In this document: one piece after another, positions 2,306 through 29,500 of the stretch
Numbering within the stretch: position 1 is the first letter of the stretch
Layout of the letters: each line of letters starts with the position of its first letter
From: an uncultured Planctomycetota bacterium
Lineage (GTDB): Bacteria; Planctomycetota; Planctomycetia; Isosphaerales; Isosphaeraceae
NCBI GenBank assembly: GCA_963823665.1
Contig: CAWGMQ010000005.1
Coordinates: 1,024,001 to 1,088,000, forward strand
Length of the DNA: 64,000 bases
Reading direction: 5' to 3'
The notes under the pieces: model-generated
The model's input: the letters and a program-made list of their open reading frames with translations, nothing else
What the model was told of the DNA's origin: nothing
Databases searched by the model: none
Made by a program: the position numbers and the translations under genes

Positions 2306-2941
2306 AACTTGCTCTCGTCGATGCACGGGTCACACTCGGAACGATCGAGCGGCACGCCGGCAACGCTGCTGCCGCCCGCCGGACGTTCGCGGGCGGGTTC
2401 GACGACCTGCGCAAGCTCACGACTGATCCCGACGCAGATGCGCTGGTCTCACGCGCAAAGCTCCTACTCTCGCCCTATAATCCCGCTGTTGGGCCACCAC
2501 CTTCGTCAAACAATCGCCGCCTCGATCACTGATCGGGAGGCGACGGCTCGCGCGAGCGAAAAGCGACACCTGTGGGTGTGGATCGGAGATCCGACGTAGC
2601 CTTCCGTCGCCACGGAAAAACGCTCTTTCGCGGGGTGCAAGACGAAACTCGTGGCCGCGTCGAACCCGTGCTCGCCGGCGAGCGCTTCGACCAGGCCGAC
2701 CATAGCTAACTCGAAAGTTTATGTTTATCATGGCCGCGAGCCGACCGGTGACCGCTGTGAGAGCAGTCACTGGCTTCTTGCTGATCCCGGACAGAGATGA
2801 AGCACTGGCCACTGCCAAGCCAAGGCCAATCGTGCAAAACTGTGAGCGGTCGGCACACGGAGTGTGCCTGCTACACCGGAGCACATGCCACCCACGCAGA
2901 ATGTTTTGATCCACCACCAGACCTGATCGGGAAACAACGCG

Positions 2942-5202
2942 ATGAGATTGTGCAGCTTCCGATTCGTGCATCGATCCCTCGGCGCTTTTGGTGTGGCAGC
3001 CCTGGTGCTGGCGATCGGGGCGTTTTGCGGCACCGCGCCGGGACAGGACGGCGCCAGGCCGCCGGAGGGGAAAGCTCAGCCCGACGCGGCGCCGGCCAAG
3101 AGCAAGGACGGTGCGCCGAAGAAGGAAGACGCGAAATCCGCGCCAGTCAAGCTTGGATTGGTGATCAACGAACCGAAGGCATTGCAGGGGTACACGTTGA
3201 TTTCCCCGTTTGATTCATCGCAAGCTTTTCTTTTCGACATGGAAGGGAGAGTCGTGCGCTCGTGGGAGACCGGCTGCGGCCCGGCGCTCTCGGCGTTCCT
3301 CCTCGATAACGGCCACTTGATGCGTCCGGGCTCGATCGGCGGCGACGCCCGAGTCTTTGGACCCGGGCCTGGTGTCGGCGGGCGGATTCAAGAGTTCACG
3401 TGGGAAGGAGAGCTGGCCTGGGATTTCAAGTTTTACAACGCCAAGCAACTTCCTCACCACAACATAACGCTATTACCGAATGGGAACGTGCTCTTGATCG
3501 TGTGGGACCGCAAGACCGCCGAGGAGGCGATTGCCGCCGGCCGCCGGCCGGAGATGACCGGCGACCGTCACTTGCTGGTGGACTCGCTCGTCGAGATCAA
3601 GCCGACCGGAAAGACGAGCGGGGAAGTCGTATGGGAATGGCACCTCTGGGATCACCTGGTCCAGGACTTAGACCAGGGCAAGCCGAACTTTGGCAATGTC
3701 GCCGCGCATCCGGAGCTTGTGAACCTCAACTACGGGGAAGACGATCTTCCCTCCGTGATCGCCGCCCGGGAGGCGAAAGAAAAAGGTAAGATCAAAGCAG
3801 ATGGCAAGGCTGCTGCCAAGGCAGGCGCCAGCCCCACGGCAAACCGGCCGCCCCGAATCAATCCGGATTACACGCACTTCAACGGCGTGGCCTATAATCC
3901 GGATCTCGATCAAATCGCGGTGAGCGTCTGGACCTTCAGCGAGTTCTGGATCATCGATCACAGCACGACGACCGCCCTAGCCGCGGGGCATGCCGGCGGC
4001 CGCAGTGGAAAGGGGGGCGATGTTCTCTACCGATGGGGCAACCCGCGGACCTATCGCGCCGGCACGAAGGAGGACCGAAAGCTCTTTTCGCAGCATAACG
4101 CACACTGGATTCCCAACGGTTGTCCCGGCGCGGGCCACCTGCTCTTGTTCAACAACGGGCCCGAGCGGCCGGGTGGGGTTTATTCATCGGTCGACGAGCT
4201 GGTGCTCCCGGCGGATTCGCGGGGGCGATACACCCTCGAGCCCGGCAAGGGATACGGGCCGCCCGGGCCAGTGTGGAGCTACACCGCGCCGAACAAGCGA
4301 GACTTCTACTCGTCGTTCATTTCCGGGCGCAGCGGCTCTCGAACGGCAACACGCTCATCTGTTCGGGCGCGAACGGCACCATCTTCGAAGTGACACCGGA
4401 AAAGACGATCGTCTGGAAATATGTCAATCCCGTCAAGTTCGATAAGCCGATCGAGCCGCCGCCCAATCCGGGTGAGATCATGGCGCCCATCGCCGGCGAA
4501 ATGCTGGGGATCTCCGCCGTCCAGCGCAAGCAGCTCGACGAGATCCAGAAAGACATCGACGCCCACCTGGACAAGCTGCTGACAGCCGATCAAAAGAAGC
4601 AATCTGCTCAATGGCCGCAGGACCCAGGCGCCAATGGGTTTTATCCGTGGTCGCAGCCCGGCCAGGTGATGGCCAGCCCCGACCAGAGCCGCCTGAAGAT
4701 GACGGATCAGCAGAAGAAAGACGTGCTCGCGCTTCAGAAGGCGATTGACGTCCGTTTCGACAGAGTGCTGACCGCGGCACAAAAGAACCAGATCAAGAGC
4801 GTCTTCGCTCCACAGGGCGCCCCGCCGGGGGGCCCGGGGCCAGGCCAGGGCCCCGCTGATCCTCAGCAGCCGGGCAAGATCTTCTCCGCGGCGCAACAGA
4901 CCACGCTCAAGCTCACCGACGCGCAGAAGAAACGTCTGGAAGAGATTCAGAAAGAGGTCGACGCGCGGCTGGAGACGCTGCTCACGGAGGACCAGAAACA
5001 GCAGCTCGTTTCGATGCAGCGCGGGGCCGGGGGCGGCGGTCCGTTCCAGAACGGCCCGCAAGGGGGACGGCCGATTTTCCGCGCGGTGCGTTATGCAAAA
5101 GACTTCCCCGGATTCGCGGGCAAGGACCTGAAACCCGGGAAGTCGCTCGAGGAGATGTTCCGCGACGATCCGGCAAAGAAGCAGGCCTCAAAGAAACAGT
5201 AA
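2942..5202 (+). CDS. Secreted aryl-sulfate sulfotransferase (ASST) family protein, 1-nt frameshift near 4325
   Basis: Signal peptide and motifs PHH, THFNGV, YRWGNP, QHNAHW. YSSFISG continues as AQRLSNGNTLI in the next frame. Confidence 0.8.
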
Positions 5203-5478
5203 ACCGCCAAGGAACGGGTCGGAAACAAGCTCGGCCGATTTACGTCAAGCGCGCCGCGGAGCGGGACACCGTTCCGACGCGGAGCGCCCTGACGAGGGCT
5301 TTCCTTCGTGGTAGGGTTGATACCCAAATCGGGAAGTTAATGCCGACCTGTTCCATAATGTACCTCATGACTCCGAATTACCTCCTGAGCGCCTGGTTCC
5401 GCTCGAATCAGGCCCAATAACGGATCAATCTCTGGCCACGGTTACGCCCGGCCCGTTCGACTGCCGAGGAGCCACGCC

Positions 5479-9783: not shown

Positions 9784-9873
9784 CCGTGACCCCGCTGACA
9801 CTTGAAGTATGAACGGTGGGGTGTCGTCTGGTAGAATACGACTGACGACCACGAATCTTCTGGAGCTTTGGGA

Positions 9874-10134
9874 ATGTCTTCGATCACTCTTCAGGAAGCG
9901 CAGAGTACGCTGGCGGAGCTGGTCCATCGACTGGCTCCGGGCGAAGGCGTAACGATCACCGAGAATGATCGGCCCGTCGCCCGTCTGATCGCGCCGCTGG
10001 TCGCGACCGCTCGTCCGCCCCGGCCGCGGCCGCCCGTGACCGGGGTACCGAAAGCGGGAAGTTGTGAGGGCCTGTTCGTCGTCCCGGATGACTTCAAGGA
10101 GCCGCTGGAGGAAATGCGGGAATACATGGAATGA
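9874..10134 (+). CDS. Phd/YefM-like antitoxin
   Basis: ITLQEAQSTLAELV..GEGVTITENDRPVARL..VPDDFKEPL. ATGA overlap with the PIN toxin gene. Confidence 0.85.
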   Translation: MSSITLQEAQSTLAELVHRLAPGEGVTITENDRPVARLIAPLVATARPPRPRPPVTGVPKAGSCEGLFVVPDDFKEPLEEMREYME

Positions 10135-10517
10135 GCCTGTTGCTCGACACTTGCGCGCTGCTGTGGTTCCTCTCCAACGACCGCAAATTGAGTGCGACGG
10201 CGCGTGCTGCAATCGAGCAGCCTTCCAACACCCGCTGGCTTTCGCCCGCCAGCCTTTTTGAAATCGCCATCAAGGTGCGGATCGGCAGACTATCGCTCGC
10301 GGCGCCGTTCGGCTCGCTGTTCCCTGCCAAGTTATCGGCGGCCGACATCCACTTGCTCCCGGTCGAACCGTCACACATCGAGCCATTGACGGTCCTGCCC
10401 CTTCACCACAAGGACCCATTCGACCGTCTGATTGCGGCAACGGCGCTGGTCGAAGGATTCACACTGGTCTCCGCGGACTCGGCATTTGACGCATACGGGG
10501 TGTCGCGGCTCTGGTGA
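10131..10517 (+). CDS. vapC: VapC PIN-domain toxin
   Basis: LLDTCALLW, SLFEIAIK, HKDPFDRLIAA, LVSAD. Confidence 0.92.
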   Translation: MSLLLDTCALLWFLSNDRKLSATARAAIEQPSNTRWLSPASLFEIAIKVRIGRLSLAAPFGSLFPAKLSAADIHLLPVEPSHIEPLTVLPLHHKDPFDRLIAATALVEGFTLVSADSAFDAYGVSRLW

Positions 10518-12300: not shown

Positions 12301-12780
12301 TCTTGCTGCTGGGTGTTTTCGGCGGGGCTCGAGGCGGCTTCTGGCAATCGACGGTTCGTATTCACGAGCAAAGCCGGTTGTCACTGGGATCGCGTGCGGA
12401 TGAGCCGAGTTTACCATTGGATTGGCATACCAACATGACATCATTATCGGACGTGGCGGAAGGGTGAACTAAGTCCTTTCCGACCTTAATGTACGTGAGA
12501 GGCCGGCATGCAGACACCGCGAAGCGCTAGAAACCAAGCTTGACGCCGCGAAGCGCCGCGGTCCGGAATAACTCGAAGTAGAGTCGAGGTGTGACGCGGT
12601 GGTTTTAGGCTCGGCCTATCTGTGTCCGGCCCTTTCGTTTGCCGGTGCCTCACTAGCCTCGCCATGCTCCGTTTTCACACCCCGCTCATCAAACCGGGCG
12701 TGCAGTTTTCCCGCACCCGGCTTTCGGACAAGGCTGTACCCCATATACTGCTTCACACGTTCGCACACGAACGATTGCCG

Positions 12781-13758
12781 CTACGTTCTTTGGAGCTGAT
12801 AGAGTCTCAGCTTCTGGTGCAGATGTTGGTCATGGAAGCGTTTCTTGCCATCACCCTGTACCTTGAACTTCACGCACAACCACTGACGCACCCGATAGCG
12901 GACGTGGCTGTTGACGTTCCGGTAGGCTTTGCTGACCGTCCCGATGCGAAAGTAGTTGGACCAACCCTTTAACTTGCTGTTGATCCTCCCCACTTGCGCT
13001 TCGACGTCCCGCCCAGCCATCTTTCGCGTCGTCAGCTCACCAATCTCGCGGCAAATCCGCTCGATCTTCTTCCGCGACGGGCGAGGTCCCAGGTAGGAGT
13101 CGCCCGTCCGGCAGTCGTAGTTCCGGCTAAGGGTGTAACCCAGAAAATCGAACGACTCATCCGGCAGGCGGCACAATCGCGTTTTCGTCTCGTTCACCGT
13201 CAGCTTCAGCCTGGACATCATTCCCCGCATCGCGGTCATGGCCTCTTCGGCCGTGCCTCGGCAGCAGATGACGAAGTCGTCGGCGTAGTTAACGATTTTC
13301 GCGGCAAGACGCTGTTCATGCCCTCCCGTCTTCCACCCCTTCACAAATCGTCGCATGTAGATGTTGGACAACAACGGGGAAATTGGAGAGCCCTGCGGCG
13401 TTCCCATCTCCTGATCCCTATTCCGGGTCGTCCGATGGCGATTCCCATAGTCGTCTGTCTCTTCCACCGGTGTTTCCAGCCACATCTTGATCAGCCGCAG
13501 CATGCGGCTGTCGCTGATCCGACGGGACACCGATTTCATTAACTCCGCATGGGGAATGCTATCAAAGTACCCCGATAGGTCCGCGTCTACCACCTCGGTA
13601 TGCCCCGCTCTGAGCAGCCGTTCCACTTGGCGAACGGCGTCCAAGGCACTTCGTTCCGGGCGGTAGGCGTGTTGCTCCGGCTCCAAGTCGGCCTCGAAAA
13701 TCGGCTCCAAGACCAACACCGCAGCCATCTGTGCCACGCGATCTTTTATGCATGGGAT
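12781..13758 (-). pseudogene. ltrA: Group II intron RT/maturase, C-terminal part
   Basis: IPCIKDRVAQ, DADLSGYFDSIPH, GTPQGSPISPLLSNIY, YADD, FDFLGY, GWSNYF (domain X). Confidence 0.93.
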
Positions 13759-14105
13759 GCCCACAGCGCACTACCCCTTCATCCAGACCGCCTTCCGGAT
13801 TTGTTACCATCACCCATCCGCATCATCCGCTTCGGGGCCAGCGTGTTGAGATCATCCGAATTCGCCGAGGGAACGATCCTGACCTCATTGTCGTGACCCC
13901 TGACGGGCGTCACACCGCCATCGCCCTGAGCAGCACAGACTACTCTTCACCCGCCGAGCGTCCTCCCGCCGTGACGGCTGAGCACCTGCTCGACCTCGAT
14001 GGTTTGCGTCGCGTCGTCCAACTGCTCGATCGTCTAGCCCAACCGGAACTCGCGCCGTCAACCACTGGCGATCGCATCCAGACGAAATCGTCCGGACCGC
14101 GGTAG
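13752..14105 (+). CDS. DUF5372 (Y4bD/Y4pK)-like small protein whose 5' end spans the left junction
   Basis: FVTITHPHHPLRGQRVEII..PDGRHTAIALSSTDY..LLDLDGLRRVVQL; family recognised by eye. Confidence 0.7.
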   Translation: MGCPQRTTPSSRPPSGFVTITHPHHPLRGQRVEIIRIRRGNDPDLIVVTPDGRHTAIALSSTDYSSPAERPPAVTAEHLLDLDGLRRVVQLLDRLAQPELAPSTTGDRIQTKSSGPR

Positions 14106-14157
14106 CATCACCCCACCAGCCCCGCACGTCGGGTTTCTGGATTAAGGAGATGCTTCT

Positions 14158-14442
14158 ATGAGCGTACGGATTGCGCACAAAGGGACCTCCGTCCCGCCCA
14201 CTCAGGTCTGGTCCGGTCTCACCGCAGAACGCCAGGCCCTTGTCATTCAGTTCCTGGCGCGTCTCGCGTCCAACCTCGTTACTGAAGATTCAATTCCAAC
14301 CCCCCGGAGCTCTGCCGATGATTCAGTCTCTTGCCCCAAAGATTCGGTCGGATCATCTCGACCGTCTAGCGCAGATCTACGTCCGCCAATCCACCATGAT
14401 TCAGGTGCGCGAAAACACCGCCAGCGGCGCCCGGCAATATGA
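14158..14442 (+). CDS. Small hypothetical protein of the recombinase element
   Basis: AAGGAG SD upstream; VWSGLTAERQALVIQFLARL; overlaps the recombinase start. Confidence 0.5.
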   Translation: MSVRIAHKGTSVPPTQVWSGLTAERQALVIQFLARLASNLVTEDSIPTPRSSADDSVSCPKDSVGSSRPSSADLRPPIHHDSGARKHRQRRPAI

Positions 14443-16416
14443 CCTGGCCAATCGCGCGGCGAACTGGGATGGCCCCTGGAGCGAATCCAGGTTATCGATC
14501 AAGATCAGGGGCACTCGGGAACGTCGTCGGCCGATCGCGACGGTTTTCAGCACCTGGTCGCGCAAGTTGGCCTGGGCCGGACCGGGGCTGTCTTGAGCCT
14601 CGAAGCCTCCCGCCTGGCACGATCTTGCAGTGATTGGTATCGTCTCATCGAGATTTGTGCCCTAACTAACACATTGGTCATCGACGAGGACGGGGTTTAC
14701 GACCCCACTCAATACTCCGACCGGCTTCTCCTGGGATTCCTGGGAACCATGAGCGAGGCCGAACTCCACTTGCTCCGTTGCCGCCTTCTGGGCGGCAAAT
14801 TGAAGAAGGCATCCGATGGCCAACTTCGGTTCCGGCCGCCTACGGGGCTGGTCTACGATCTTGAGCGCCGGATCGTTTTCGATTCCGACGAACAGGTCCA
14901 GCTGGCAGTCCGGCTGGTCTTCGATCTGTTCGACCAGTCGCCTTCGGCTTTGGCCGTCGTCAAACACTTCGCTGATCATCACCTCCAGTGCCCCACGCGG
15001 CTCTGGGGTGGCAGCCGACACGGTGAAGTCATTTGGAGACCGCTGAGCAATGGCCGTGTCCTGGACATCCTGCATAACCCCGAGTACGCGGGCGCCTATG
15101 TCAATGGCCGCACAAAGACTCGCCTTGTGTGCCTGCCTGGTGAAGAGCCGAGGGTTAAGGGCCGAACACGTCGAGTCCGGCCCGAGGACTGGCCATTCCT
15201 CATCCCCGGGCACCATCCCGGGTACATCACCTGGGATCAGTTCCAGCGGAACCAACAGCGGCTTGACGACAACCGGACGTTACCCGATCAAGATCGCCGT
15301 GGAGCGCTGCGAGAAGGCCTCGCCTTGCTCCAGGGAATCGTTCGGTGTGGACGATGCGGACGGCGGATGTCCGTCCGTTACCTCAATAATGCTTCAGTAC
15401 CATCATACGAGTGTAACTCATACCACACTCATTTCGCGGGCAAAACCTGCCAGTCGATCCGCGGTGATGGGGTCGACGCAGCGGTTGCGCGTGCCCTCCT
15501 GGAAGCCATGCGGCCAGCGCAGCTCGAGGTTTCGATGGCGGCCTTCGATCAGGTTGCGGCACAGGCACGCCAGCTCGATCGTCAATGGCAATTGACCCTG
15601 GAACGCGCTCGCTACGAGGCCGAGCTGGCCCGGCGCCGGTTCGTCTCCGTGGAACCGGAGAACCGATTGGTGGCTCGGACGCTGGAACGGGAGTGGAACG
15701 AAAGGTTAGCCGAGATCGAACGTATGGAACGAGATCAAACGCTCCGCCCTCAATTAGCCAGTCGGCTGGTCGATCCAGAGGAGCGATGCCGGGTGCTGGC
15801 ATTAGCTCAAGATCTCTCGAAAGTCTGGCATGCCCCGACAACGCCTCAGACGGCCCGCAAACAATTACTGGGATATTTGATCAAGGATGTGACTCTCTCT
15901 CGAGGAGAGACGCTAGTCCAAGTAGCCATCCGGTGGCAGACTGAGGCTTGCACCGAGCTCGAGGTTCCTCGCCCCAAGCGATCTTACGAGATGCGTCGGA
16001 CTGACCCGGTGGTCGTTGATCGGATCAAGGCCCTAGCGATGGAACACACCGACCGCCAGATCGCCGCGCTGCTGGATCAGGAGGGTTTCCGATCAGGCAC
16101 TGGAAGTCGATTTACTCGACACATCGTTGCACAACTTCGATATAGTTATTCAATTATGAGCTTATGTCCCGAGGCACCGGCGGCGTGCGCCGAGGTTTAC
16201 CGGGCGGATGGACGACGTTCCGCGAAGACCGCCGCGGAATTGCTCAACGTGAATGTGTCCACAATTGCGGAATGGTGCCAGTCGGGCACTCTGGATGGGA
16301 TCCAGTCCGCCCCTTACGCTCCATGGTGGATCAAGCTCACGCCGGGGATCATCGCTGGCTTGCGTAAGCCAACCCGGCGCACTTGGTCTCGGCGATCGGT
16401 TTCGTCAGAGAAATAG
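14318..16416 (+). CDS. Large serine recombinase (resolvase, recombinase, Zn-ribbon, coiled coil), 1-nt frameshift near 14460
   Basis: IYVRQST (catalytic Ser), then in the next frame LGW..IDQDQGHSG, LEASRLAR, PPTGL, HNPEYAGAY, LLQGIVRCGRCGRRM. Confidence 0.9.
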
Positions 16417-16492
16417 GGCCCAGTATTGGGCGAGACCTTCTTCGATCAATCCCCAATGCCGTTGGAAAGAGGTGCAGTATGAACGACAGATC

Positions 16493-16818
16493 GGGATTCC
16501 GAGCGGCCTTTGCTTGCCATCCCCTTTCGGGATGAACACTCGCCGGACCGGCCGGGGACGATACGTTCCGTTCCTGAGTTCTTCCGTCAGTTCGTCCAAC
16601 CACTGGTCTCGTCCGTACTCCTCGATGTCCGCAAAGCTCTGGCGGTCGACCCCCGGAGCACCGCGATTATTGCGGCACCGGAAGAAGGCCCACTCCAAGA
16701 TGTCTCTGCGATGCACCTTGTCGTACAACGCGTAGAACCGATAGTCAGGCGAGTTCTTCGCTTTGGTGTGCAACGCCGTCTGTAACTTCCCAACCGTAAT
16801 TGGAGGTAATAGGCTCAC
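16493..16818 (-). pseudogene. ltrA: Group II intron RT/maturase, N-terminal part
   Basis: GTG start with GGAG SD; YRFYALYDKV, NRGAPGVD, YRPRPVRRVFIPKGDGKQRPLGIP. Confidence 0.92.
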
Positions 16819-17380
16819 GCCAATCTCCTGGATGTCAGTCGCGTATGACGTTGACCTTGAACCAAGGCCCCTTCCCTCCACCGACGTTACTCGGCTTCGC
16901 AGGTACTACGGACCTCTCCGCCACCCGATGCGGCCCGGCCTGTCCCTCACGGGCGTCCGGTTGAGGGTCACGCCCCTCACCGCATGGGTTTCCCGTGTTG
17001 CGTTAAAATCTCCGTTTACCGACATGCCGTCGTCATTACCCCGGTGGCCCGCTGGGCCTTGATCGCTCGTGGGACGGCCTATTCCAACCGTTTCCCTGTA
17101 CCCAGCGGCTGCGGCCTTCCCCATCCTATTGCAAGGTCGGCGTCCACATTGGTCGTTTCGAGGCCTGCTCAACGTTCACTGGCTATTACGGCCTGTCGGC
17201 TCGCCGAGTCGCCTAGAGCGACCCGTCTGTCTCGAAGGCTCCGACGGTTTCGTTTCCTCCCCTCGTCGCTTCGATAGCTACCGGCTGGAGCGACCCAGAT
17301 GCCGGGTGGGATTTGCACCCACTGAAGACCAACACCTTCAACACGGCGCACAATAGGTCTGACCCCGGACATTATGTCGC

Positions 17381-17434: not shown

Positions 17435-17502
17435 CCGTGGACGAAGCCGCGGAGCGCGAAGCTTGACACCGCGAAGCGCCACGAATCCCACGGGATTTCC
17501 CT

Positions 17503-20500
17503 TTACGAATTGTTGGAAATGTATAGCGCAATGAAATCCTTGAGAATATCAGCCAGGTGACCAATATCTACTCCAAATTTCATGAGGGGGATTGTGACAG
17601 CGGTGAACGTTCCCTTCAGCTTCTGCGCGTCTCTGAACACAACTGCCACTTGCGCTTTCAGCGTGTCGATCTCCACAACTGCCACGCTGTTACTAAAGGT
17701 CATGCTTATGGTCCGATGGCCGGCAACCTCGGTTGCGCTCAGGAGAAGGTCTTGGGTAAGTCTTGCGAGATTCAGCCCGACGTCGGCGATAGTGACCAAG
17801 TCACTTGAGGTAGAGATCAGATTTAAACCCAGCTGAATCAAACGATTCCCCTTGTTGTAGAACTGAAATCCCTCGTCGTCACCCCGTGCGATCAAGTCGA
17901 GCCCGGTATAGCGCCATTTGAAGCCAGGAATGACCACATACTGGATCAACGTCTGAGCGATGGCGAGCGTGAGCAATTCTGGCCCAGCAGTTTGAGCGAC
18001 GCTGATGGTCGATTGGATCGTCAGCTCCACGGCGAGTTCGGCTAGGCTCGCCTGCCTCCCCGAGGGATCGACGAGATTGACGGGGTCGCCGTCCGCGTAG
18101 GCGTAGCTATTGGAGAAAATCCGGACTAGGCTGGCACCGTGGAGTGGGTCCACGCTCAAAAACCGCCCTGTTGCCGGGTCAAGGTAGCGAGCCCGTAAAT
18201 CGTCGAGGCCGGTCGTTTGGTCCTGGTACTCACCTTCGAACAAGTAACGTGTCACCGCGTTCCCCGAGTGCGCCAGGGTGTTACCGAACGCGTCATATAC
18301 ATAGCCGCCGATCACCTTCCCAGACGAATCGGTCAGCGCTCGTGTGCTGCCAAGTCCGTCGACTAAGAGGATCGTTCGCGCACCGCCCACTACCTGCGAA
18401 ATCGGTCCCGTGCCGATTCCGAAGACGGCCGAGGACGAGATCTGACCGCCGGGCGTGTACTCCTCGACGACCTGGGCGTAGGGAAGATTCGTATCGACGA
18501 GCTTGTTGGTCGTCTGGCCGTCGACTGTGGATTGAACGAGGTTACCATCGGCGTCGTAGCGATTGACCTCCTCTTGCGTCCCCGTGGAATTGGTGACCTT
18601 GGCGTCAATCAATTGGTTCTGAGAGTCCCATTCGTAGAGAACCTGATCGGTGGCGCTCGTGATCTGCGAGAGCGTGTTGCCGTTGTTGTCGTAGGTGTAC
18701 TTCGTGGTCTGGCTGCCGGTGGTCGAAGTTAGGAGGCGGTCGTTGGCGTCGTACGTGTAGTCCGTCGTGCCCTGGGTTGAGTCGACCATGGTCAGGCGGT
18801 TGCCGACGGGATCATAGGTATAGGATATGTCCTGGTTGCCGTTAACCGGGTCGGTGATGATCTCCTCGATTAAGCGGTCAAGGGCGTCGTAGTTGTACTG
18901 GTCGGTGCGGCCGTTGGCCTCGACGACGGAGTCGGTGCGGCCGTTGGCGGCTAGCGTGTACTTGTAACTGGCGATCACGCCGCTCGGGCCGTCGTCTTCG
19001 AGGTAGACCAAGCGGTTGAGCGAGTCGTACTGGCGGATCTCGGACGTATTGTTGGGGAACTGCGTCTTGACCAGGTTGCCGGCGGCATCATAGGTGTAGG
19101 TCGTCACTCCGCCCTGGGGGTCGGTCACGGTGGCCATCCGACCGAGGGCGTCGAAGGTGTAGGTCGTCGTGCCGGCCGGGATGGTGATGGAAGTGCGGTC
19201 GCCAGCGGCGTCGTAGGTGTACGTGATCGAGGTGCCGTCGGGGTCGGTCTTGGACAGGAGGCGGTCTAGGGCATCGTAGGTATAGGTTGTGGTTCCCCAG
19301 CCCGGCACCGTGTCGCTGGCTCGCTGGCCGGTCGCGGTGTAGGTGAAGGTCTCGGTGGTCCCGTCGGGCAGGTTCTCGGCGGTGAGCCGGCCGATCACGT
19401 CGTACTGGTAGGTGATCGTCGCCCCGTTGAAATCGGTCGTGCTCGCGACGTTGCCGTTGGCGTCGTACGTTGTCGTCGACTTCTGGCCCATTGGCAGGAT
19501 CGTGGCGATCTTCTGGCCCAGGCCGTCGTACTCATAGGTGGTCGTATGGCCGTTGGCGTCGGTCTGGGAGATCAGGTCGCCGGCCTCATCGTAGGCGTAC
19601 GAGGTCGTCTGGCCCAGGGCATCGACGACAGCCGTCAGATGGCCCAGTGCGTCGTACTGATCGTGCGTGGTCCGGCCAAGCTGGTCGGTCTCGGCAATCC
19701 CGCGGCCGACGGCGTCGTACGTGGTCGACGTGGTCGTGCCGTCGGCGTAGATCGTCTCGATGAGCTGCCCCGCGGCGTCGTAGACCGATTTTGTGGTGTG
19801 GCCCAACGGATCGGTGGTGGCGACGGCGTTCCCGGCGGCGTCGTACGCCGTGCTGGTCACATCGCCCAGGGCGTCGGTGACGGAGACCTGGCGTCCGTCG
19901 GCGTCATAGGCGAAGGTCGTCTTGTTGCCCAGCTCGTCGATCTGCGCGGTGACCTCGCCGTCGGCGTCGTAGACCGTGCTCGTGGACGTGCCGTCGGGGT
20001 TGATGGTCTTGACCAGTCGGCCCAGTGCATCGTACTGCATCGTTGTGACCCGACCCTCTTGATCGATCTGCGCGATCACGTTCCCGGCGGCGTCATATTC
20101 CGTCTTGGTCGAGGTTCCGTCAGGGTAGTCGGTCTCGATCAGCTCACCGCGCGCGTCATAGAGGTACTTCGTCACGTTTCCGAGCGCGTCAGTGTCGGAG
20201 ATCTTCAGGCCGTCGGCGTTAAACTGCGAGCTGGTGGTGTGCCCGTCGGCGTCGGTGACGGAAATCACGTTGCCATTGGCATCGTAGACCGTCTTTGTCA
20301 CCAGCGTCTGCACGCCGGAAGGAGTCGTGAGCAAGGAGGTCGAGGTGATCGGGTTGCCGCTGGAATCGTAGGTGGTCGTGGTGGTGTGGCCCAGGGCGTC
20401 GGTCGTGCTGATTACCTGGCCCTGGGAATCGTACTGAAACGCCGTGGTGTCGCCGATGGCGTCGGTGAGCGTGATCGGATTGCCCGAGATGTCGTAGGTC

Positions 20501-23500
20501 AGTTTGGTGACATCGCCGAGCGGGTCGGTGGTCGACAGCAGGTTGCCCTTGGCGTCGTAGGCGTTGGTCGTGGTGTTGCCCAGCGGATCGCTGGTGGTGA
20601 GGACATCGCCGTAGGCGCCATAGGTGCTTCGAGTGACGTTGCCCATCGGATCGGTGGTGGTCAAGGCGTTGCCCGAGGCGTCGTAGGTGTAGGTCGTCGT
20701 GCGGCCGAGCGGGTCGGTCTGGGAGAGCAGGTTGTTGTTGGCGTCATAGGTGCTCGTGGTCACGCCGCCGAGGGCATCGATCTCGGTGAGGATGTTGCCC
20801 TGCGCGTCATACTCGTACGTCGTCGGATTGCCCAGGGCGTCCGTGACCGTCTCGCTCGAGTCAGTCGGATCGTAAGCCATGTCGACGGTCTTGCCGGCGG
20901 CGTCGACGAGGCCGATCAGACGGCCTTGATCGTCGTAGAGAGTCTTGACTCCGGTGCGGCCCAGCGGGTCGATCACATCCTGAAGATAATGGGCGAAGTC
21001 CGTGCTGTAGTCGAACGTCGTCACGTTTCCAGCGAGATCCGTCACCGCAACGAGGTCGCCGGCGGCGTCGTAGGTGTAGTGGATCGTGTTGCCCGAGGGA
21101 TCGATGACGGATGTGATCCGGCCCTCGGGATCGCGCTCGAATGTGACCTTCTCGCCGGAGGTGCTGGTGATGCCGCTGGGAGAAAACGTCAGCGCGTCGC
21201 CGTTGCGATCGGCGACGGTATCCAGCATGCCCGTCTGCCCGTTAATCGTGTAGACGATGCCGTCTTTGGTGGTCAACGTGTAGGTCCCGCCGAAGGAGGG
21301 GCTGGCCGGGTTGTAGGGCAGGTCGCCGTTAAAGTCGGAATACGTGCCGTCGTCGTTCTGGCGCAGGTCGAACTGGGTGACGCTGAGGGTGTCGGTCACG
21401 CCTGGATCGGCGGTGAAGCTCGGATTCATGATGCCGAGGAAGCCCGACGCGAAGCCCGGCGAGAGTTGAGGAGTGAACGTGAACCCCTCGCGCTGGCCGC
21501 CCGGCAACGTCACGTAAACGCGCGTGCCGTTCTGGAACGCGCTAAAGATGCCCTCGGATTCCTGGCCGGTTGTGGGCACGCTCGTCTGGAGGTTGGTGTC
21601 GCCGAACTCGAGCTGCCAGCCGTAGCCGAAGTCCTCGCTCGTGCCGGCGTTCAGCGTGTCGTAGGTCCTTGTAACGGTGATCGGGATGCCCGAGACGGGG
21701 ACGGTCAGGTCGGTGAACGACAGGGTGAAGTTACCTAGCTTGAGATTGCCGGCAACGCTGATCTCTTGATCAACGGTCGACGTGTGGTTGCCCGTGTTCG
21801 TCGCGGTCAGGCGCAGGTCGTAAGTGTCGTTGGCCAGCAGGGTCGGGTCGAAGGTGCCGAGCAGGGCGTTGTTGACGGGCGTGGTGCCGCCGGCAATGTG
21901 CTTGACCTGGACGCCGTCGAGGGTGTAGACGTCGAGCGACCACGAGGCCAGGTGCTGGTCGGCGACTGTTCCGGTCACGTCGGTGAACGTCGTGACCGTC
22001 GCACCGTCGGTGGGCGAGGCGATCGCGACGTTGGGCGCACCGGTGACGCTAGGGTCGAACACCACGAGCGAGGCCGTCGCCTTGGCGGTGTTGCCGGCGA
22101 GGTCGGACGCGGTCGCCAGCACGTTGAGGCTTCCGGCCTGGGTGACCTTCAGTGTCGCCGTTCCGTTCGCATCCAGTACTCGGATCGTCCCGCCCACGGT
22201 CAGGACCTCGGACGTGACGCCGACATTGTCGGACGCCAGAACCTGGAAGGTGACCATGTCGCCCAGCTTGGCAGGGTTTTCGCTCATCTCAAGCTGGACG
22301 CGCGGCGCCTGGGTGTCGGCCGAGACCATGATGGCGTAGGTTTGGGTGACCGAGAGGCCAAGGCCGTCGTCCACCTCGACCTGGACGTGCGCCGAGCCGA
22401 CGTTGGACGGGGCCGTGGCCCAGGTGATTCGCCCCAGCGAGTCGACGGCCATGCCGCTCGGCCCGGCCACGATCTGGTAACTGAGCGGGGTGTTGTCCGG
22501 GTCGCTCGCCTGCACGTCGTAGTGATAGGTCAGCCCCGCGGTCACGGCGGTGACCGGGCTCGAGGTGATCAACGGCGGCGCGGGAACCGGCTCAACATCA
22601 ATGACGAACCGCTGCGAGGCGGTCGCGCCCGAGGGATCAGCGGCCGCGACCGTAACCGTCTGATCGCCAAGTTGCGCGGTGGTCGGTGTCCACGAGACCA
22701 GGCCGCTGGCGGCGACAATTGCCATTCCAGCGGGTGGAGCGAGCAGGGAATACGTCAGGGTCGCACCGGAGGGATCGGTGGCCGTGACGGCATAGCTGTA
22801 GCCCGTGCCCACGATCGCGCGGTCGGACGGGGTCGACGTGATCACCGGCGGCAGGCTGGACGTGGACGTGGAGGCGACGACGGTGAAGCTCTGGGACGTC
22901 GAACCACCCAGGCTGTCGGCCACCAGGACCGAGACGTTCTGCGGGCCGGCCTGGCCCGAAGTCGGGGTCCAGAGGATCAGGCCCGTTACCGGGTCGATGG
23001 TCATGCCGGAGGGCTTCGTGGGCAGGGTGAATGTGAGCGGATTGTTCAGGGTGTCGACGGTTTGCACCGCGTAGGCGTAGGACGAACCGACTGTCGCATC
23101 GGTGGGCGGCGTCGAGATGATCTGTGGTGGAATGTCCGCGGCGAAGATGGCGACGGAGAAGCTCTGGCTGTCGCTCCCTCCTTCCGCGTCGACCACGCGG
23201 ACGGTGACCGCCTGGGGACCGACCTGGGAGGCGACGGGAGTCCAGCGGATCGTCCCTAGCGCCTGGTCGATCGACATTCCGGCAGGTGCGGTATCCAGGA
23301 ACCAATAGAGCGGATCGCTCTGGGGATCAACGGCGGTCGCGTTGTAGCTAAACGGGCGGCCCACGACGTCGAAGAGCGGGGGCGAAGAGGTGATCGACGG
23401 CGGCTGGCTGGTGACGCTGGCCGAGACGGTGATCGCCACGTCCTGGGTTGCGACGCCGCCCCGGCCATCGTTCACCGAAATCGCGACGGCGTTTTGCCCG

Positions 23501-26500
23501 AGCTGGGCCTGCGTGGGGTTCCAGGTAACCAGGCCGCTGGCGCTTATGGTCATGCCCGCGGGCGCGGTGGTGAGCGAATAGGTGATGGGGTCGCCGTCGG
23601 GATCGGTGGCCTGGACGGCGTAGAGATAGGTGCGCCCCAGGCCGATCGTATCGCGGGGCGTGGAGCTGATGACGGGTGGTCGATTGGCGGAGGCGGCCAC
23701 GACGGGCAGGTTGAACGACTGGTCAGCGCCGCCGCCCTGACCGTCGGTGACCACGACATCAACCGGCGCGGTCCCGACCTGCGCCACCGTTGGGGTCCAG
23801 GTCACGAGGCCACTCGACGGGTCGATCGTCATGCCGACCGGGTTCGTGGCGAGTGAGTAGGTGAGCGGGTCGTCGTCGGCATCCTGGGCGAGCACCTGGT
23901 ACTGGTATGGGTACCCCGCCGTGGCGGGACCGAGCGGCGTGGAGGTGATCACGGGAGGGCGGTCTGCCGCGGCGACCGTCAGCGTGAAGGACTGGAGCGC
24001 CACGCCCCCGTTGCTGTCCCGGACGCGGAGAATGGCATCGGCCTGGCCTGTCTGCGAGTCGTCCGGGGTCCAGACGACCTCGCCGGTTGTGGGGTCGACG
24101 GCCATCCCCGCCGGCGCGACGGGCAGGTCGAAGGTAAGTGGGCTGCCCGTGGGGTCGACGGCTGTGGCGTTATACTCATATGTCGATTCGGCGACGGCCT
24201 GTGTGGAGGGCGTGCTCGTGAACCAGGGAGATGGGGGGCCCTGCGGCGTCGAAGTTGGCGTGACCGAGAAGTCGTTGTCCGTGGAGGACTGGCCGGCAGC
24301 GAGGGTGTCGGTAAAATACGGGGTTGTCGTCGTGCCTGGCAAGAGCGCCAGGTCGGCGTTGCCGCCAAATCCGCTCGGGAAGGCGATCGACCCGATCCAG
24401 GTGGCCGCGGCCGTTGTCTTGTTGACACGGTACAGGTCGGAGACACCGGAGCCGTCGATTCCCGAGGCAGCGTACAGGACGCCCTGTGAGTCGATCGCGA
24501 GATTTGCTCCGCTCGGGAACGTCGGGTACGACCCGCCATTGCCGGCGAGATGACCGATCACGGTCGTCGTAAGGTCAGTCAGATCGATCTTGAGTAGTGT
24601 TCCATCAAGGGAAGCGCCGTAGAGTGTGCCGTCGGTGTCGAACGCCAGGTCGGCCCCCAAGTGGCCGGTGTTGAGAACTAAGGTGGCTGCAGCGGTCTCG
24701 GGGTTCACACGCCACAAGTCCCCATTGACAAAGCCCCAGGAGTAAAGAAAGCCGTCCGGGCCAAAAGTCAGCGAGTTTTGGTCCGACGCACCGAAGAATC
24801 CGATGAACTGGGTCGAGCCCGTCGCCAGATCAATCGAGTAGAGCGATGTGGTGGAACCGATGGTGGTTCCGTAGCCCAGGCCGTTTTTGGGGTCGATGGC
24901 GATGCTCTCGATGGATCCGACGGTCCCGACTTCCTCCGCAACCGGGGATGTCTGAAAGTTGTTTATAGCGTAGAGCACGGTCGAGCCCGTCTGCTGGACG
25001 AGGGACACCCCGTAAAGAGCGTCCGGTGTCACCGCTGCCACCGGAGAAGCCTGCTGCCATCCCTGGGGCGGAACTTCGGCCACGGTATAGTTGCCCGGCG
25101 CCAGTCCGGTGAAGGCATAGTCTCCCTGGGGGTTGGTCGTTGCGGTCGGGTCGCCCGGGTCGAGCTTACCGTCGTGATTCTGGTCGAGGAACACGGTCCA
25201 GCCGGCCAGCGGCTCGTTGTCGGTCGAGCGCGTGACCGTGCCGGTGATCGAGCCGGGAAGCGGCTGGTCGGTGAAATTGTTTCCGGTGGAGGTCTGGCCG
25301 GCGGCGAGGGTGACGGTGTAGAAGGAGGTTGTTGTGCTTCCCGGCAAGAGCGCCAGGTCGCCAGTGCCGCCGAATCCGTTCGGGAAGGCGATCGAGCCGA
25401 TCCAGGTCGCCGCGGCGGTCGTCTTGTCAACCCGGTACAGATCCGCGAGTGGGGAGCCCTCAATGCTCGCGACGGCGTACATCACGCCCTGGGAGTCGAT
25501 GATGAGGCCCGGAGCGTAATACCCTTGGGCGAGCAGCCCTTGGTCACTGGTAAGCGTGCCAACCACCGTGCTCGTGAGGTTAGTCAGATCGAACCTCAGT
25601 AGCGACCCGTCGTACGAGATCCCATAGAGTGTCCCATCCGTGTCGAAGGCAAGGTCGGCCCCCCAGTGACCGGTGTCGAGAACGAAGGTGGCCGCACCGG
25701 TCACGGGGTTCACACGATACAAGTTGTCAAAAATGCCGTAGCCCCAGGAGTAAAGATAGCCGTCGGGGCCAAACGCGAGTGAGTTCTGGTCGGCGATGCC
25801 CGGCGTACCGATGAGCGTCGTCGCACCTGTCGCCGGGTCAATCGAGTAGACCGAGGTGGTTGGGGAATCGATGGTGGTCCCATAAAGCCCGCCGGTCGCG
25901 GGGTCGCCGGCGAGACTCCAGATCGATCCGACCGGGCCGATTTCCTCGGCGACGGGCGCCGTCTGGAAGTTGTCGATGGTGTAGAGCACGTGCGACGAGC
26001 CTTGTTGAAACTGCGACACCCCGTAGAGTGTATCCGGAGTCCGCCCCGCCACCGGAGAAGCCTGCTGCCAACCCTGGGGCGGGACCTCGGCCACGGGGTA
26101 GGTGCCCGGGGCCAGGCCCGTGAACGTGTAATCTCCCTGGGCGTTGGTGACGGTCGAGACTTCGCCAGGGTCGAGAATTCCGTTCTGGTTCGTGTCGAGG
26201 AAGACGGTCACGCCGGCCAGGCCGGTCGATGTGCCCGCCAGCGTGATCACTCCCTGGATCTCGCCGGGGGTGCCTTGCGCGGCGTTGATCGTGTAGCTCT
26301 GGGTGTCGAAACCGCCGCGGCCGTCGTCAACGCGGACGGTGATCGGGATCGCCAGGTGGCCAATCTCCAGGGTGGGAGGGTTCAAACCCTCCTTGCTCGA
26401 AAACCGGACCTGCTGATCGGTTGACTGGTACTGCGGCACGCTCTCATATGCCAGCGCAAGCGTGAGGTAACCGCTCGCGATGTCGGGCTGCAGGTCGTAG

Positions 26501-29500
26501 CCGCTGAAGTCGAAGACGACGTCCTGGCCTGCTTGCGTTGGGGTCGCCTGGGCCAGCAGGTCCTGGCTCTTGTTCAGATCCGCGAGGAACGCGTCGCCGA
26601 AATTGGCACCGGTGATTCCGGTCATGGGGTCGGGGCTCGGGTTGATCGTTCCGAACGGGCTGAAGACGCCGGTTCCCTGCGCCCAGTTGTTGTCGGCCAC
26701 GTGATAGAGGCCGATCGTGCTGGAGCCGCTCACGATCGTGGTGTGAATAACAAGCTGAAGTGACGTGACCGGCCAGGTCACACCGGAGAGATTGAAGCGG
26801 AGGAACGAAAAGTCGATCGCCGAATTGAGCGGGTCGTTTCCACCCGGCTCGTCGCCGGCGAACACCTCGAGAAAAGGCGAATCGCCGCCGTTTTCTTCGA
26901 GGCGACTGGCCGGCTCGGTCAGAACGATCGAATCGTCGGTTGGCTCCAGGTTCACTACGCTCTGTTCGCTCGCGGTCACCGTCCCCTGTACCAGGCCCGA
27001 GGATGGGTCGATGCTGAAGTTCGAGGGAGCGGTCACAAGAGAATAGGTCAGTGGGTCGTTGTCGGGGTCGAGTGCCTTGACTGCGTAATCGTACGGAGTC
27101 GATTGCGGCTGGAGGAGGAGCTGAGTCACCGGCGTGCTGATGATCGTCGGGGGATGATCTCCCAGCGCCGCTGTTGCGATTACCGCAAAAGATTGGGTTG
27201 CCGTACCTCCCTTCCCGTCCGTCACCGAGAGTTCGACGCCGGAAGAGCCGGTCTGGCTCGAGGATGGCGTCCAGGTCACCAGGCCTGTCGTGGGATCGAC
27301 GGCCATTCCCGAAGGGCCTGAAATCACCGCGAAGGTGAGCGGGTCGTCGTCGGGATCGGAAGCCGTGGCCTGATAGATGTACGGTGCGCTCACACTTGCC
27401 GAAACAATCGGCGTGGACGTGAAGACCGGGGGCCGGTCCGGCGGCGGGTTGATCACCGAGAGGGTGAAATCTTGCTCCGCTGAGCCTCCGTGCCCATCGT
27501 CGACGAGGAGGGCGATGGCGGCGTTGCCCACGTCGGCGCTAGCGGGCGACCATGTGACCGTTCCGCTGGCCGCGCCCACAGTCATGCCGGAGGGGCCGGA
27601 AAGCAGCGAGAACGTCAGGGGATCGTTGTCCGGGTCGGCGGCCGTTGCGTCGTAGACGTAAGCGCTGCCGGCGACCGCCTGCACCTTCGGGGTCGATGTG
27701 AACTGGGGCGGGCGGTTGAGCTCCGCGAGGAAGACCAGGTCGTAGGTGAACGGGATGCCGTTCGGGTCGTCGAACGCGACGGTCCGGGAATCGGTCGTTT
27801 CCCCCGCTCCGAGTTTTCCGCCCGGCACCAGGGCACTCAGGTCGAAGTAGGGCAAGCCGTCCGGCGTGGTTCCGTCGGCGCCAGCGACGCGCACCGAGGG
27901 ATCGCTGATATGGTCGATCGCCACGATCAGGGGGGCGTCCATAAAGTACTGGCCGGCATTCCGGGCCGCAACATCGGCATACAGCACGCTGTCTTGCTGG
28001 TCGAACGATGACCGTCCGTAGACGGGCTGGACACTGGCCGAGACGTCGCTCAGGGCGGCGAAGTCGATGGGCGCGCCAGGCTGCGCCGGGGACGCGGCGG
28101 GTTGGCCGCCCGGGTCGACCGGCTGACCCAAGAGTGGCGCCACTTGCACATCGCCGACATCAACCGATGTATTCACGTCGCCGTCGTTGTTCACCAGCCG
28201 GAAGACGAGCGAGGCGACCGTTCCTGGTGTGACGTTCGAGACATCGAGCGTAACCTTCTGCCCGTTCTGCGTGGCCCAGGCGCCAAGCTCCGCAGGCTGG
28301 CCTTCCGAGACGTTCAGGAAGGCGTCGCGGCTGGCGGCGAAGGTCGGTACGAGGGAGTTTCCCGAGGCGTCTACCAGGGCCACCTCGAAGGCGTCCTTTA
28401 CCCGACCCTGGCTGGTCGTGTCGAAATCCAGGTCACTGTAGTCGAAGCTCAGGGTCGACGCCTGCGGCGGGATGGTGATCGGCTGCGACAGGGTGACGTC
28501 GAACGAGTCTCCCTCGCGCAGCGTGGCGTCACAACCGCTGATCGTCACGCTCCCCATGCCGGTATTTGATCCGCCGCTTTGAGCGACAACGGCGTTGCCG
28601 AACCCCATGCAGGTGTCGAGGGTGAACGCGAAATCAGAGGGCGCCGAGACGTTGCCCGCGCGATCGGTGGCAAGGAAGTGGACGGTGTGCGGGCCGTCGT
28701 CCGTGCCGTCCAGCGCCAGGCTGCTCGTCAGGCTGAAGTTGCCGGCAGCGTCGAGTGACAGAGGAGCGAAAGCGCCGCCGTCGAGCGCCCATTCCGCACT
28801 AGCCACGCCCGAGAGCGCATCGGCCACGTGGCCCGTGATCGTGATGTTCTGGGTCGTGGTCAGTCCGGGCGGCGGGCTGGTCACGGTCACCGCCGGCGGG
28901 GTGGAATCCAGGGTGAAGGCGAAGTTGGTGACGGGCGAGACATTGCCCACGAAGTCGGTCGAGACCAGGTGGACGGTGTGGCTGCCGTCGGCGGAATGGT
29001 CGAGGGGCAGACTGGTCGTAAGGCTGAAATTGCCGGCGGTGTCGAACGATACCGGGGTGTAGGCACCGCCGTCGACCGCCTCCTGGAGCGATGCCACCCC
29101 GGTGAGATTGTCCAAAACGCGGCCGACGAGGGTGGGGTTGCTGTTCGTGATTAGCCCCTGGGCAGGGGACGTGATCGTCACGGACGGTGCCTGCGTGTCC
29201 AGAACGATTCCGATCGCGGCCGTCTGCTGCTGGCCGAACGAGTCGGTGGCCCTCACCTGGAGGTTGTTGGCGCCGGGCGTGAGCGCGACGCTGAACGAAA
29301 ACAACCCCGAGGAATTCGCGGTGGTCGAGCCCTCGTCGAACTGTCCATCGCTGCCGGTTCCGAGCGCCACGGCGGCGCCGGGGTTGGTCGTGCCGTTCAA
29401 GGTGATTGCGGCGGTCGCGGTGGCCAGGCTACCGGAGGGCAACGTCACCAGGCCCGGCGGCGTCTGCAAGGAGAGCGCCAGAGGAGTGACGCTCGTCGCA

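Follow-up and report, generated by a model that had tools for sequence, protein, structure and literature searches.

A large-serine-recombinase element in a group II intron reverse transcriptase gene, with its attachment site inside its own DUF5372 coding sequence

The element and its group II intron host

A large-serine-recombinase element of 2,739 bp was located at 13754-16492 (plus strand) of the window, that is, of the whole 64,000-nucleotide stretch of DNA that was analysed. It interrupts the reverse transcriptase (RT)/maturase gene of a minus-strand group II intron, in which ribozyme domains I-VI and the RT/maturase ORF are all present. Domains V-VI were matched at 12578-12725 (minus strand; Rfam RF00029, 42.7 bits, gathering 40) and a domain I-IV segment at 17181-17324 (minus strand; Rfam RF02003, 86.8 bits). 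The RT/maturase gene is cut at the motif RPLGIP into a 3' part at 12781-13758 (minus strand; PF00078, PF08388, TIGR04416 positions 68-351) and a 5' part at 16492-16818 (minus strand; TIGR04416 positions 2-73). Its reading frame was restored at RPLGIP once the 2,739 bp were removed, and contigs of related introns from two soil runs (X1, X2) skipped exactly 2,739 bases at the insertion point. The pentamer GGGAT was present at both ends of the insert (13754-13758 and 16493-16497, plus strand), and the crossover dinucleotide would be 13754-13755. Insertion was precise at this short core, without target duplication, and the central dinucleotide is surrounded by palindromic arms.

The element carries a DUF5372 ORF, a small ORF2 and the recombinase gene; neither a replication nor a transfer gene was found in it with the ORF list and a profile search. 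The DUF5372 gene body (named Y4bD/Y4pK; PF17342, E 8e-10) occupies 13755-14105 (plus strand) and has no start of its own. ORF2 (14158-14442, plus strand) is conserved and helical, and returned no family in the profile search and only unnamed clusters under 0.9 in the Atlas. Its homologues overlap the recombinase start in many clades, as it does here, and share a conserved W..L motif; it is a candidate for a second cofactor, perhaps one acting in excision. The recombinase gene (14318-16416, plus strand) encodes resolvase, recombinase and zinc-ribbon domains and a C-terminal HTH (PF00239, PF07508, PF13408). Compared with relatives from runs X3 and X4, it has a one-base deletion near 14458, possibly a real lesion and possibly an assembly error, and this copy of the element may be inert owing to the frameshift. 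Frameshifts were also seen in several long-read MAG copies, which is why an assembly error is considered.

Other features of the surroundings were recorded. Short GC-rich repeat copies flank the intron on both sides (12513-12560 and 17459-17483), as if it had been inserted into a repeated element. No intact copy of the interrupted intron ORF was found in the same genome with the query used. Eight or more stretches that match the intron's 5' RNA part at 83-94%, but lack an ORF match, were present on contigs C5, C6, C7 and C8 (L003-L010), three of them clustered within 7 kb on C5. A second recombinase of the family, with an ORF2-like frame, was found in this genome (L232; G000:C3, about 126650-129000, minus strand), and no DUF5372 match was found within 7.5 kb of it. 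Within the window, a minus-strand ORF of 4,199 aa (17503-30102) with Ig-like and YD/RHS-type repeats by eye resembles what we take to be a polymorphic toxin/adhesin carrier, and a small overlapping gene pair (9868-10517) presumably encodes an antitoxin and a PIN-domain toxin.

The split DUF5372 gene and its conservation

An earlier sequence-only reading of this locus had proposed that joining the element ends at GGGAT supplies the DUF5372-like ORF with a Shine-Dalgarno (SD) sequence and a start codon. The components of that proposal were all found in place. The right end carries the SD-like AAAGAGGTG at 16466-16474 (plus strand), which overlaps the outer right arm and is followed by ATG at 16479. 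In the integrated state this ATG opens 18 codons only, ending at the stop 16533-16535 (ORF 16383-16535). When the ends were joined, the ATG and first five codons (16479-16493, plus strand) fused in frame with 116 DUF5372 codons to give 121 aa, and the start stood just behind the recombinase gene, 62 nt after 16416. The left attachment-site arm (13755-13780, plus strand), a conserved motif palindromic with the right arm, would then form codons 6-14 of the gene on the circle. Near the left end, the integrated ORF has a single in-frame ATG, a chance one from the target DNA (13752-13754, plus strand), upstream of which no SD-like, purine-rich stretch was seen. The attachment site lies inside the DUF5372 coding sequence, and the recombinase gene lies wholly between the ends. 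No sigma-70-like promoter was found in the integrated sequence from 13600 to 16700 (0 sites).

Homologous loci were gathered from genomes, plasmids, metagenomes and viral contigs, and 142 pairs of DUF5372 and recombinase were parsed; 72 loci with a recombinase but without a DUF5372 match in reach were left out. By database record labels the family spans five phyla (Planctomycetota, Pseudomonadota, Actinomycetota, Chloroflexota and Acidobacteriota). Carriers include the cultured Singulisphaera sp. GP187 (L031) and rhizobial plasmids (L097, L102). The recombinase stop was in view for 123 pairs. Eight of these 123 were dropped because an end was truncated, present twice or missing, and 17 left and 6 right ends were anchored manually. 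The elements formed 63 clusters at 90% recombinase identity and 25 at 70%; all counts are over related elements, and kin are not independent. Crossovers were placed by fixed arm geometry and checked against target-gene continuity; a rule based on the longest shared core had put them at the wrong spot in several elements and was replaced.

Retention of the in-frame junction in homologues had been set beforehand as the test of the proposal, and an in-frame ATG or GTG was found in the right end in 62 of the 63 clusters. The start was ATG in 50, GTG in 6, ATG displaced by +3 bases in 4 and by -36 bases in 2, and missing in 1. A 6-nt SD match stands in front of the ATG in the two clusters where it lies 36 bases earlier. 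Two right ends (L131, L132) have GTA at the usual start position and carry, 36 bases before it, an in-frame ATG accompanied by GGAGGAG, an apparent compensation. The SD-led start was reached without a stop in 60/63 clusters, against 5-8/63 when the join was shifted by 1 or 2 bases; SD matches were scored here and below against an SD consensus that may not be the host's. Stop codons in the joined heads numbered 0 in 63 clusters, and the start overlaps the recombinase stop as ATGA in 7/63. Element length taken from target-gene continuity, which is independent of any motif, agreed modulo 3 in 78/81 elements (37/37 clusters).

Two matrix searches were also made. The left-arm matrix, applied with the frame ignored, scored at least 7 in 115/142 elements, and the arm was in the DUF5372 frame in all 115; the distance from arm to DUF5372 domain ranged from 6 to 17 codons and varied by whole codons only. 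The right-arm matrix with the start positions masked scored at least 7 in 111 elements, which carried ATG (88), GTG (7), AAG (7) or others (nine) at those positions, a test that is only partly blind, the matrix seeds having been chosen with the start codon in the pattern. Those of the AAG right ends that were listed have ATG next.

In database records, the N-termini of 120 homologues differ from one another and come from target DNA, and the annotation of six plasmid regions (one of them unannotated) contains no DUF5372 gene. An SD and start were supplied by target DNA in 3/63 clusters.

The same right-end bases have a second candidate role. ATG 16479 mirrors three bases of the other arm and so falls also within the likely recombinase-binding motif, and the arms of the family are palindromic at positions -5 to +2 around the central dinucleotide. 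The arms are read as binding sites because recombinase binding is described as modular in the available portions of PMC11722253 and PMC12286644. Part of the ATG motif is therefore probably a recombinase-binding site, and binding explains part of its conservation. In the extreme case, the SD-like motif and ATG would be kept solely as a recombinase arm, DUF5372 would be translated weakly, whether or not the element is integrated, from internal GTG/TTG codons or from starts in target DNA, and the in-frame fusion would be incidental. The palindrome speaks for this, as do an internal GTG, TTG or ATG of some kind in the left end of 33/63 clusters, the internal valine at which gene callers started many homologues, and the absence of a codon-position signal in the 8-codon linker before the domain (entropy 1.44/1.48/1.45). 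The two arms, however, differ. Although 27/63 clusters show ATG or GTG at the mirror-arm positions of the start when the other strand is read, A occupies the first start position in 86% of right arms and 38% of mirror arms, and an SD match of at least 5 nt was found in 46/63 right arms and 5/63 mirror arms. In six elements the start is shifted off the arm motif with the frame kept, and the spacing from arm to domain changes, as above, in whole codons. Internal starts preceded by an SD match (at least 4 nt) occur in just 4/63 clusters and an internal ATG in 2/63; the sequence-only reading had named a conserved internal start in homologues as grounds for rejecting its proposal, and none was found. 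The asymmetry of the arms favours a translation start over binding alone, and conservation purely as a recombinase arm is considered highly improbable.

From these comparisons the DUF5372 gene is very probably split by integration, and its product would appear only once the element has been excised as a circle. The circle itself was sought. Its junction was found in 0/121 family genomes, 0/5 multi-copy genomes and 0/142 parsed elements, and a circle-derived N-terminus in 0/120 homologue proteins; these searches rest largely on assemblies, from which rare circles are dropped. No joint running from right end to left end was seen among the 15 joints listed, beside which there were 23 more. No RNA data set was among the holders listed. 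Three viral contigs matching a gapped junction pattern were rejected as chance matches; neither DUF5372 nor the recombinase is on them.

Targets and the predicted recombinase complex

Close relatives of the element sit at this motif in a variety of intron RT genes, in one case in reverse orientation. For other clades, 21 hand-picked flank frames were examined, of which 14 matched mobile-element genes (IstB, 4; IS21 transposase, 4; and one each for IS66, IS91, an integron integrase, another tyrosine recombinase, a serine recombinase and an RT), 1 gave a weak Hint match and 6 had no match. The targets are conserved protein motifs whose DNA varies. Scans of the target half-sites at shifts between -8 and +12 did not reveal the arm motif, and integration is therefore plausibly the step that needs help. 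Central bases shared between junction and target suggest that the recombinase itself reads DNA there. Several genomes hold many copies of the element.

Some members depart from the common form. In one clade (L087-L095, about 2760-5340) the insertion lies in the recombinase gene of the element's own family, at L.LKG[TAS]MSE, with at least eight copies in two genomes, an instance of element-on-element parasitism. Four loci (L019, L020, L034 and L035, first 2500 bases) hold two different family members in one intron RT gene, about 220 bp apart, at RPLGIP and at a YFD motif. Longer members of about 3.3 kb (L138, L151, L157, L168, L170) have some 700 extra bases between DUF5372 and the recombinase and lie mostly in IS21 transposase genes. 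The recombinase gene of another relative is split by about 2 kb of other DNA (L026, 4538-6570).

The DUF5372 protein was modelled with AlphaFold2 as a four-stranded barrel with a C-terminal helix (pLDDT 84). Fold matches were to generic SH3/KOW barrels (Z up to 5.8; Foldseek E above 0.01); no specific structural relative was found in the fold searches, and the Atlas returned DUF5372 clusters only. DUF5372 was likewise the only Pfam family among its relatives, in 43/56 members. Comparison with known recombination directionality factors (RDFs) gave no match in sequence or fold. RDF folds vary, according to the available portion of PMC12286644.

A complex of DUF5372 with recombinase residues 95-600 of the main segment was predicted with a score of 0.73; the best of three controls scored 0.00. 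The score mark was reached by 116/157 solved complexes and 2/215 mismatched pairs, a rough calibration only, for which own alignments were used. Model runs agreed in at least 71% of contacts, with a partner pLDDT of at least 68. The predicted interface comprises segment residues 251-257, 305-321 and 391-454, and takes in the zinc motif, the coiled-coil base on either side and the latter half of the zinc domain. DUF5372 contacts it mainly through the C-terminal helix, which has conserved leucines near 74-81 of the modelled segment, and the HP.HP segment, and most of the barrel is free. On the strength of the model, DUF5372 probably binds the recombinase. RDFs are described as binding the junction of zinc domain and coiled coil in the available text of PMC11722253 and PMC12286644; in the latter, false positives among such complex predictions are also reported, and the proteins tested that bind there all promote excision rather than integration. 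The suggestion in the sequence-only reading that the protein is a directionality factor gains support from the placing of the model at the known RDF site.

Literature searches returned no paper on DUF5372 and, within the literature searched (subscription journals and ISfinder lay outside its scope), no description of the element or its layout; the names Y4bA/Y4pH and Y4bD/Y4pK gave irrelevant matches only. Neither 'group II intron' nor 'reverse transcriptase' occurs in the main text of PMC10083194, and its supplements (recombinase and target lists) may hold family members. No arm distances for comparison were present in the accessible part of PMC5499577.

Proposed role and relation to known systems

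We propose, with a probability of roughly 0.55, that DUF5372 is made only from the circle, is seated as predicted on the zinc domain and coiled-coil base and switches the recombinase towards inserting the circle. The attachment site lies five codons into the DUF5372 gene, which would be split when integrated, and whole and translated on the circle only. The recombinase would excise the element as a circle, on which DUF5372 would be the last cistron of the ORF2-recombinase transcript, behind the recombinase stop. The protein would accumulate and redirect the coiled coil, so that the circle junction pairs with loosely specified targets, which would be conserved motifs of the genes of other mobile elements. 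Integration would split the gene again and end DUF5372 synthesis.

A role in integration rather than excision is, by a slight balance, favoured, because the circle is the substrate of integration, the element has no replication gene and the targets are poor binding sites. More tentatively, at somewhat under even odds, the family may be pictured as unnamed, widespread, IS-sized elements that parasitise the core genes of mobile elements by means of an inverted directionality factor. Excision would build DUF5372 and the recombinase would become an integrase, and integration would destroy the gene, a self-resetting switch situated in the attachment site.

Two other roles were considered for a gene that is truly split. 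The protein could be a classical RDF: synthesised when a circle occasionally forms by itself, it would prevent re-integration and set off the excision of other copies in positive feedback, insertion resuming upon its dilution. The predicted binding at the zinc-domain/coiled-coil junction, where verified RDFs bind in the available text of PMC11722253 and PMC12286644, agrees with this, and genomes with many copies would allow action in trans. Against it, an excision factor would be absent precisely at the stage where the element has to be excised, its expression would coincide with that of the recombinase on the substrate of integration, and a circle without replication or transfer genes that was unable to re-insert would presumably be lost; we consider a classical RDF rather unlikely. 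Alternatively, DUF5372 could be a targeting adaptor, with the helix holding the recombinase and the SH3/KOW-like barrel recognising the DNA of the target, RNA or a host-element protein. This would explain the clade-specific choice of degenerate coding motifs and suits targets that are protein motifs with variable DNA; in the model, too, most contacts are made by the helix and HP.HP and the barrel is mostly free, and its best fold matches are KOW/SH3 barrels. These fold matches are, however, the generic ones given above, the shared central bases suggest that the recombinase itself reads the DNA, and such an adaptor overlaps with the proposed helper of integration. As a separate explanation it is judged improbable.

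In serine integrase systems the integrase alone inserts and the RDF excises. If DUF5372 favours integration, as preferred here, this textbook logic is reversed, and the protein would be an obligatory cofactor, one that is missed when recombinase-mining screens assay the enzyme by itself. The analysis gives DUF5372 a testable function and experiments a true N-terminus, and the split layout accounts for annotation that gives the gene a wrong start or overlooks it. Group II introns, IS21, IS66, IS91 and integrase genes are inactivated by the family, which therefore bears on conflict among mobile elements.

The layout is related to attP-split integrases, the BPs repressor and circle-junction promoters, yet is a member of none of these groups, because here integration splits an accessory gene and takes away its translation start. 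Lyras and Rood (2000) reportedly described a circle-junction promoter for tnpX of Tn4451/Tn4453. Tn4451, like the present element, has a large serine recombinase.

In the archaeal 'suicidal' integrases of SSV1, pTN3 and pT26-2, as described in the available portion of PMC8371274, the attachment site also lies in a gene of the element that is intact in the circular form and broken up by integration. There the integrase gene is itself split, whereas in the present element the recombinase gene remains intact and only the SD, start and five codons are removed, from an accessory gene. The archaeal enzymes are tyrosine recombinases, in contrast to the bacterial large serine recombinase of this element, and split integrases are called exclusive to archaea in that text. 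Mycobacteriophage BPs similarly has attP within a regulatory gene, so that the product depends on the integration state (available portion of PMC4557955). In BPs what is removed is a C-terminal degradation tag, and the product is active in the integrated state; in the present element it is the N-terminal start, and product is expected only after excision. In the circle-junction promoters of ICEclc (Pcirc) and ICEKp1, as given in the accessible text of PMC13023037, the joined ends likewise switch on a gene at the other end. Those promoters act on transcription of the recombinase gene, whereas in the present element a separate gene would have its coding sequence and translation start put together. 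Integrase-RDF pairs such as those of SPbeta (PMC11722253 and PMC12286644, in part) and the C. difficile skin element (PMC5025042, in part) resemble the predicted complex in having a small partner at the junction of zinc domain and coiled coil. Known RDFs, in the available text of PMC11722253 and PMC12286644, are unlike DUF5372 in being whole genes that are expressed from the integrated element and drive excision.
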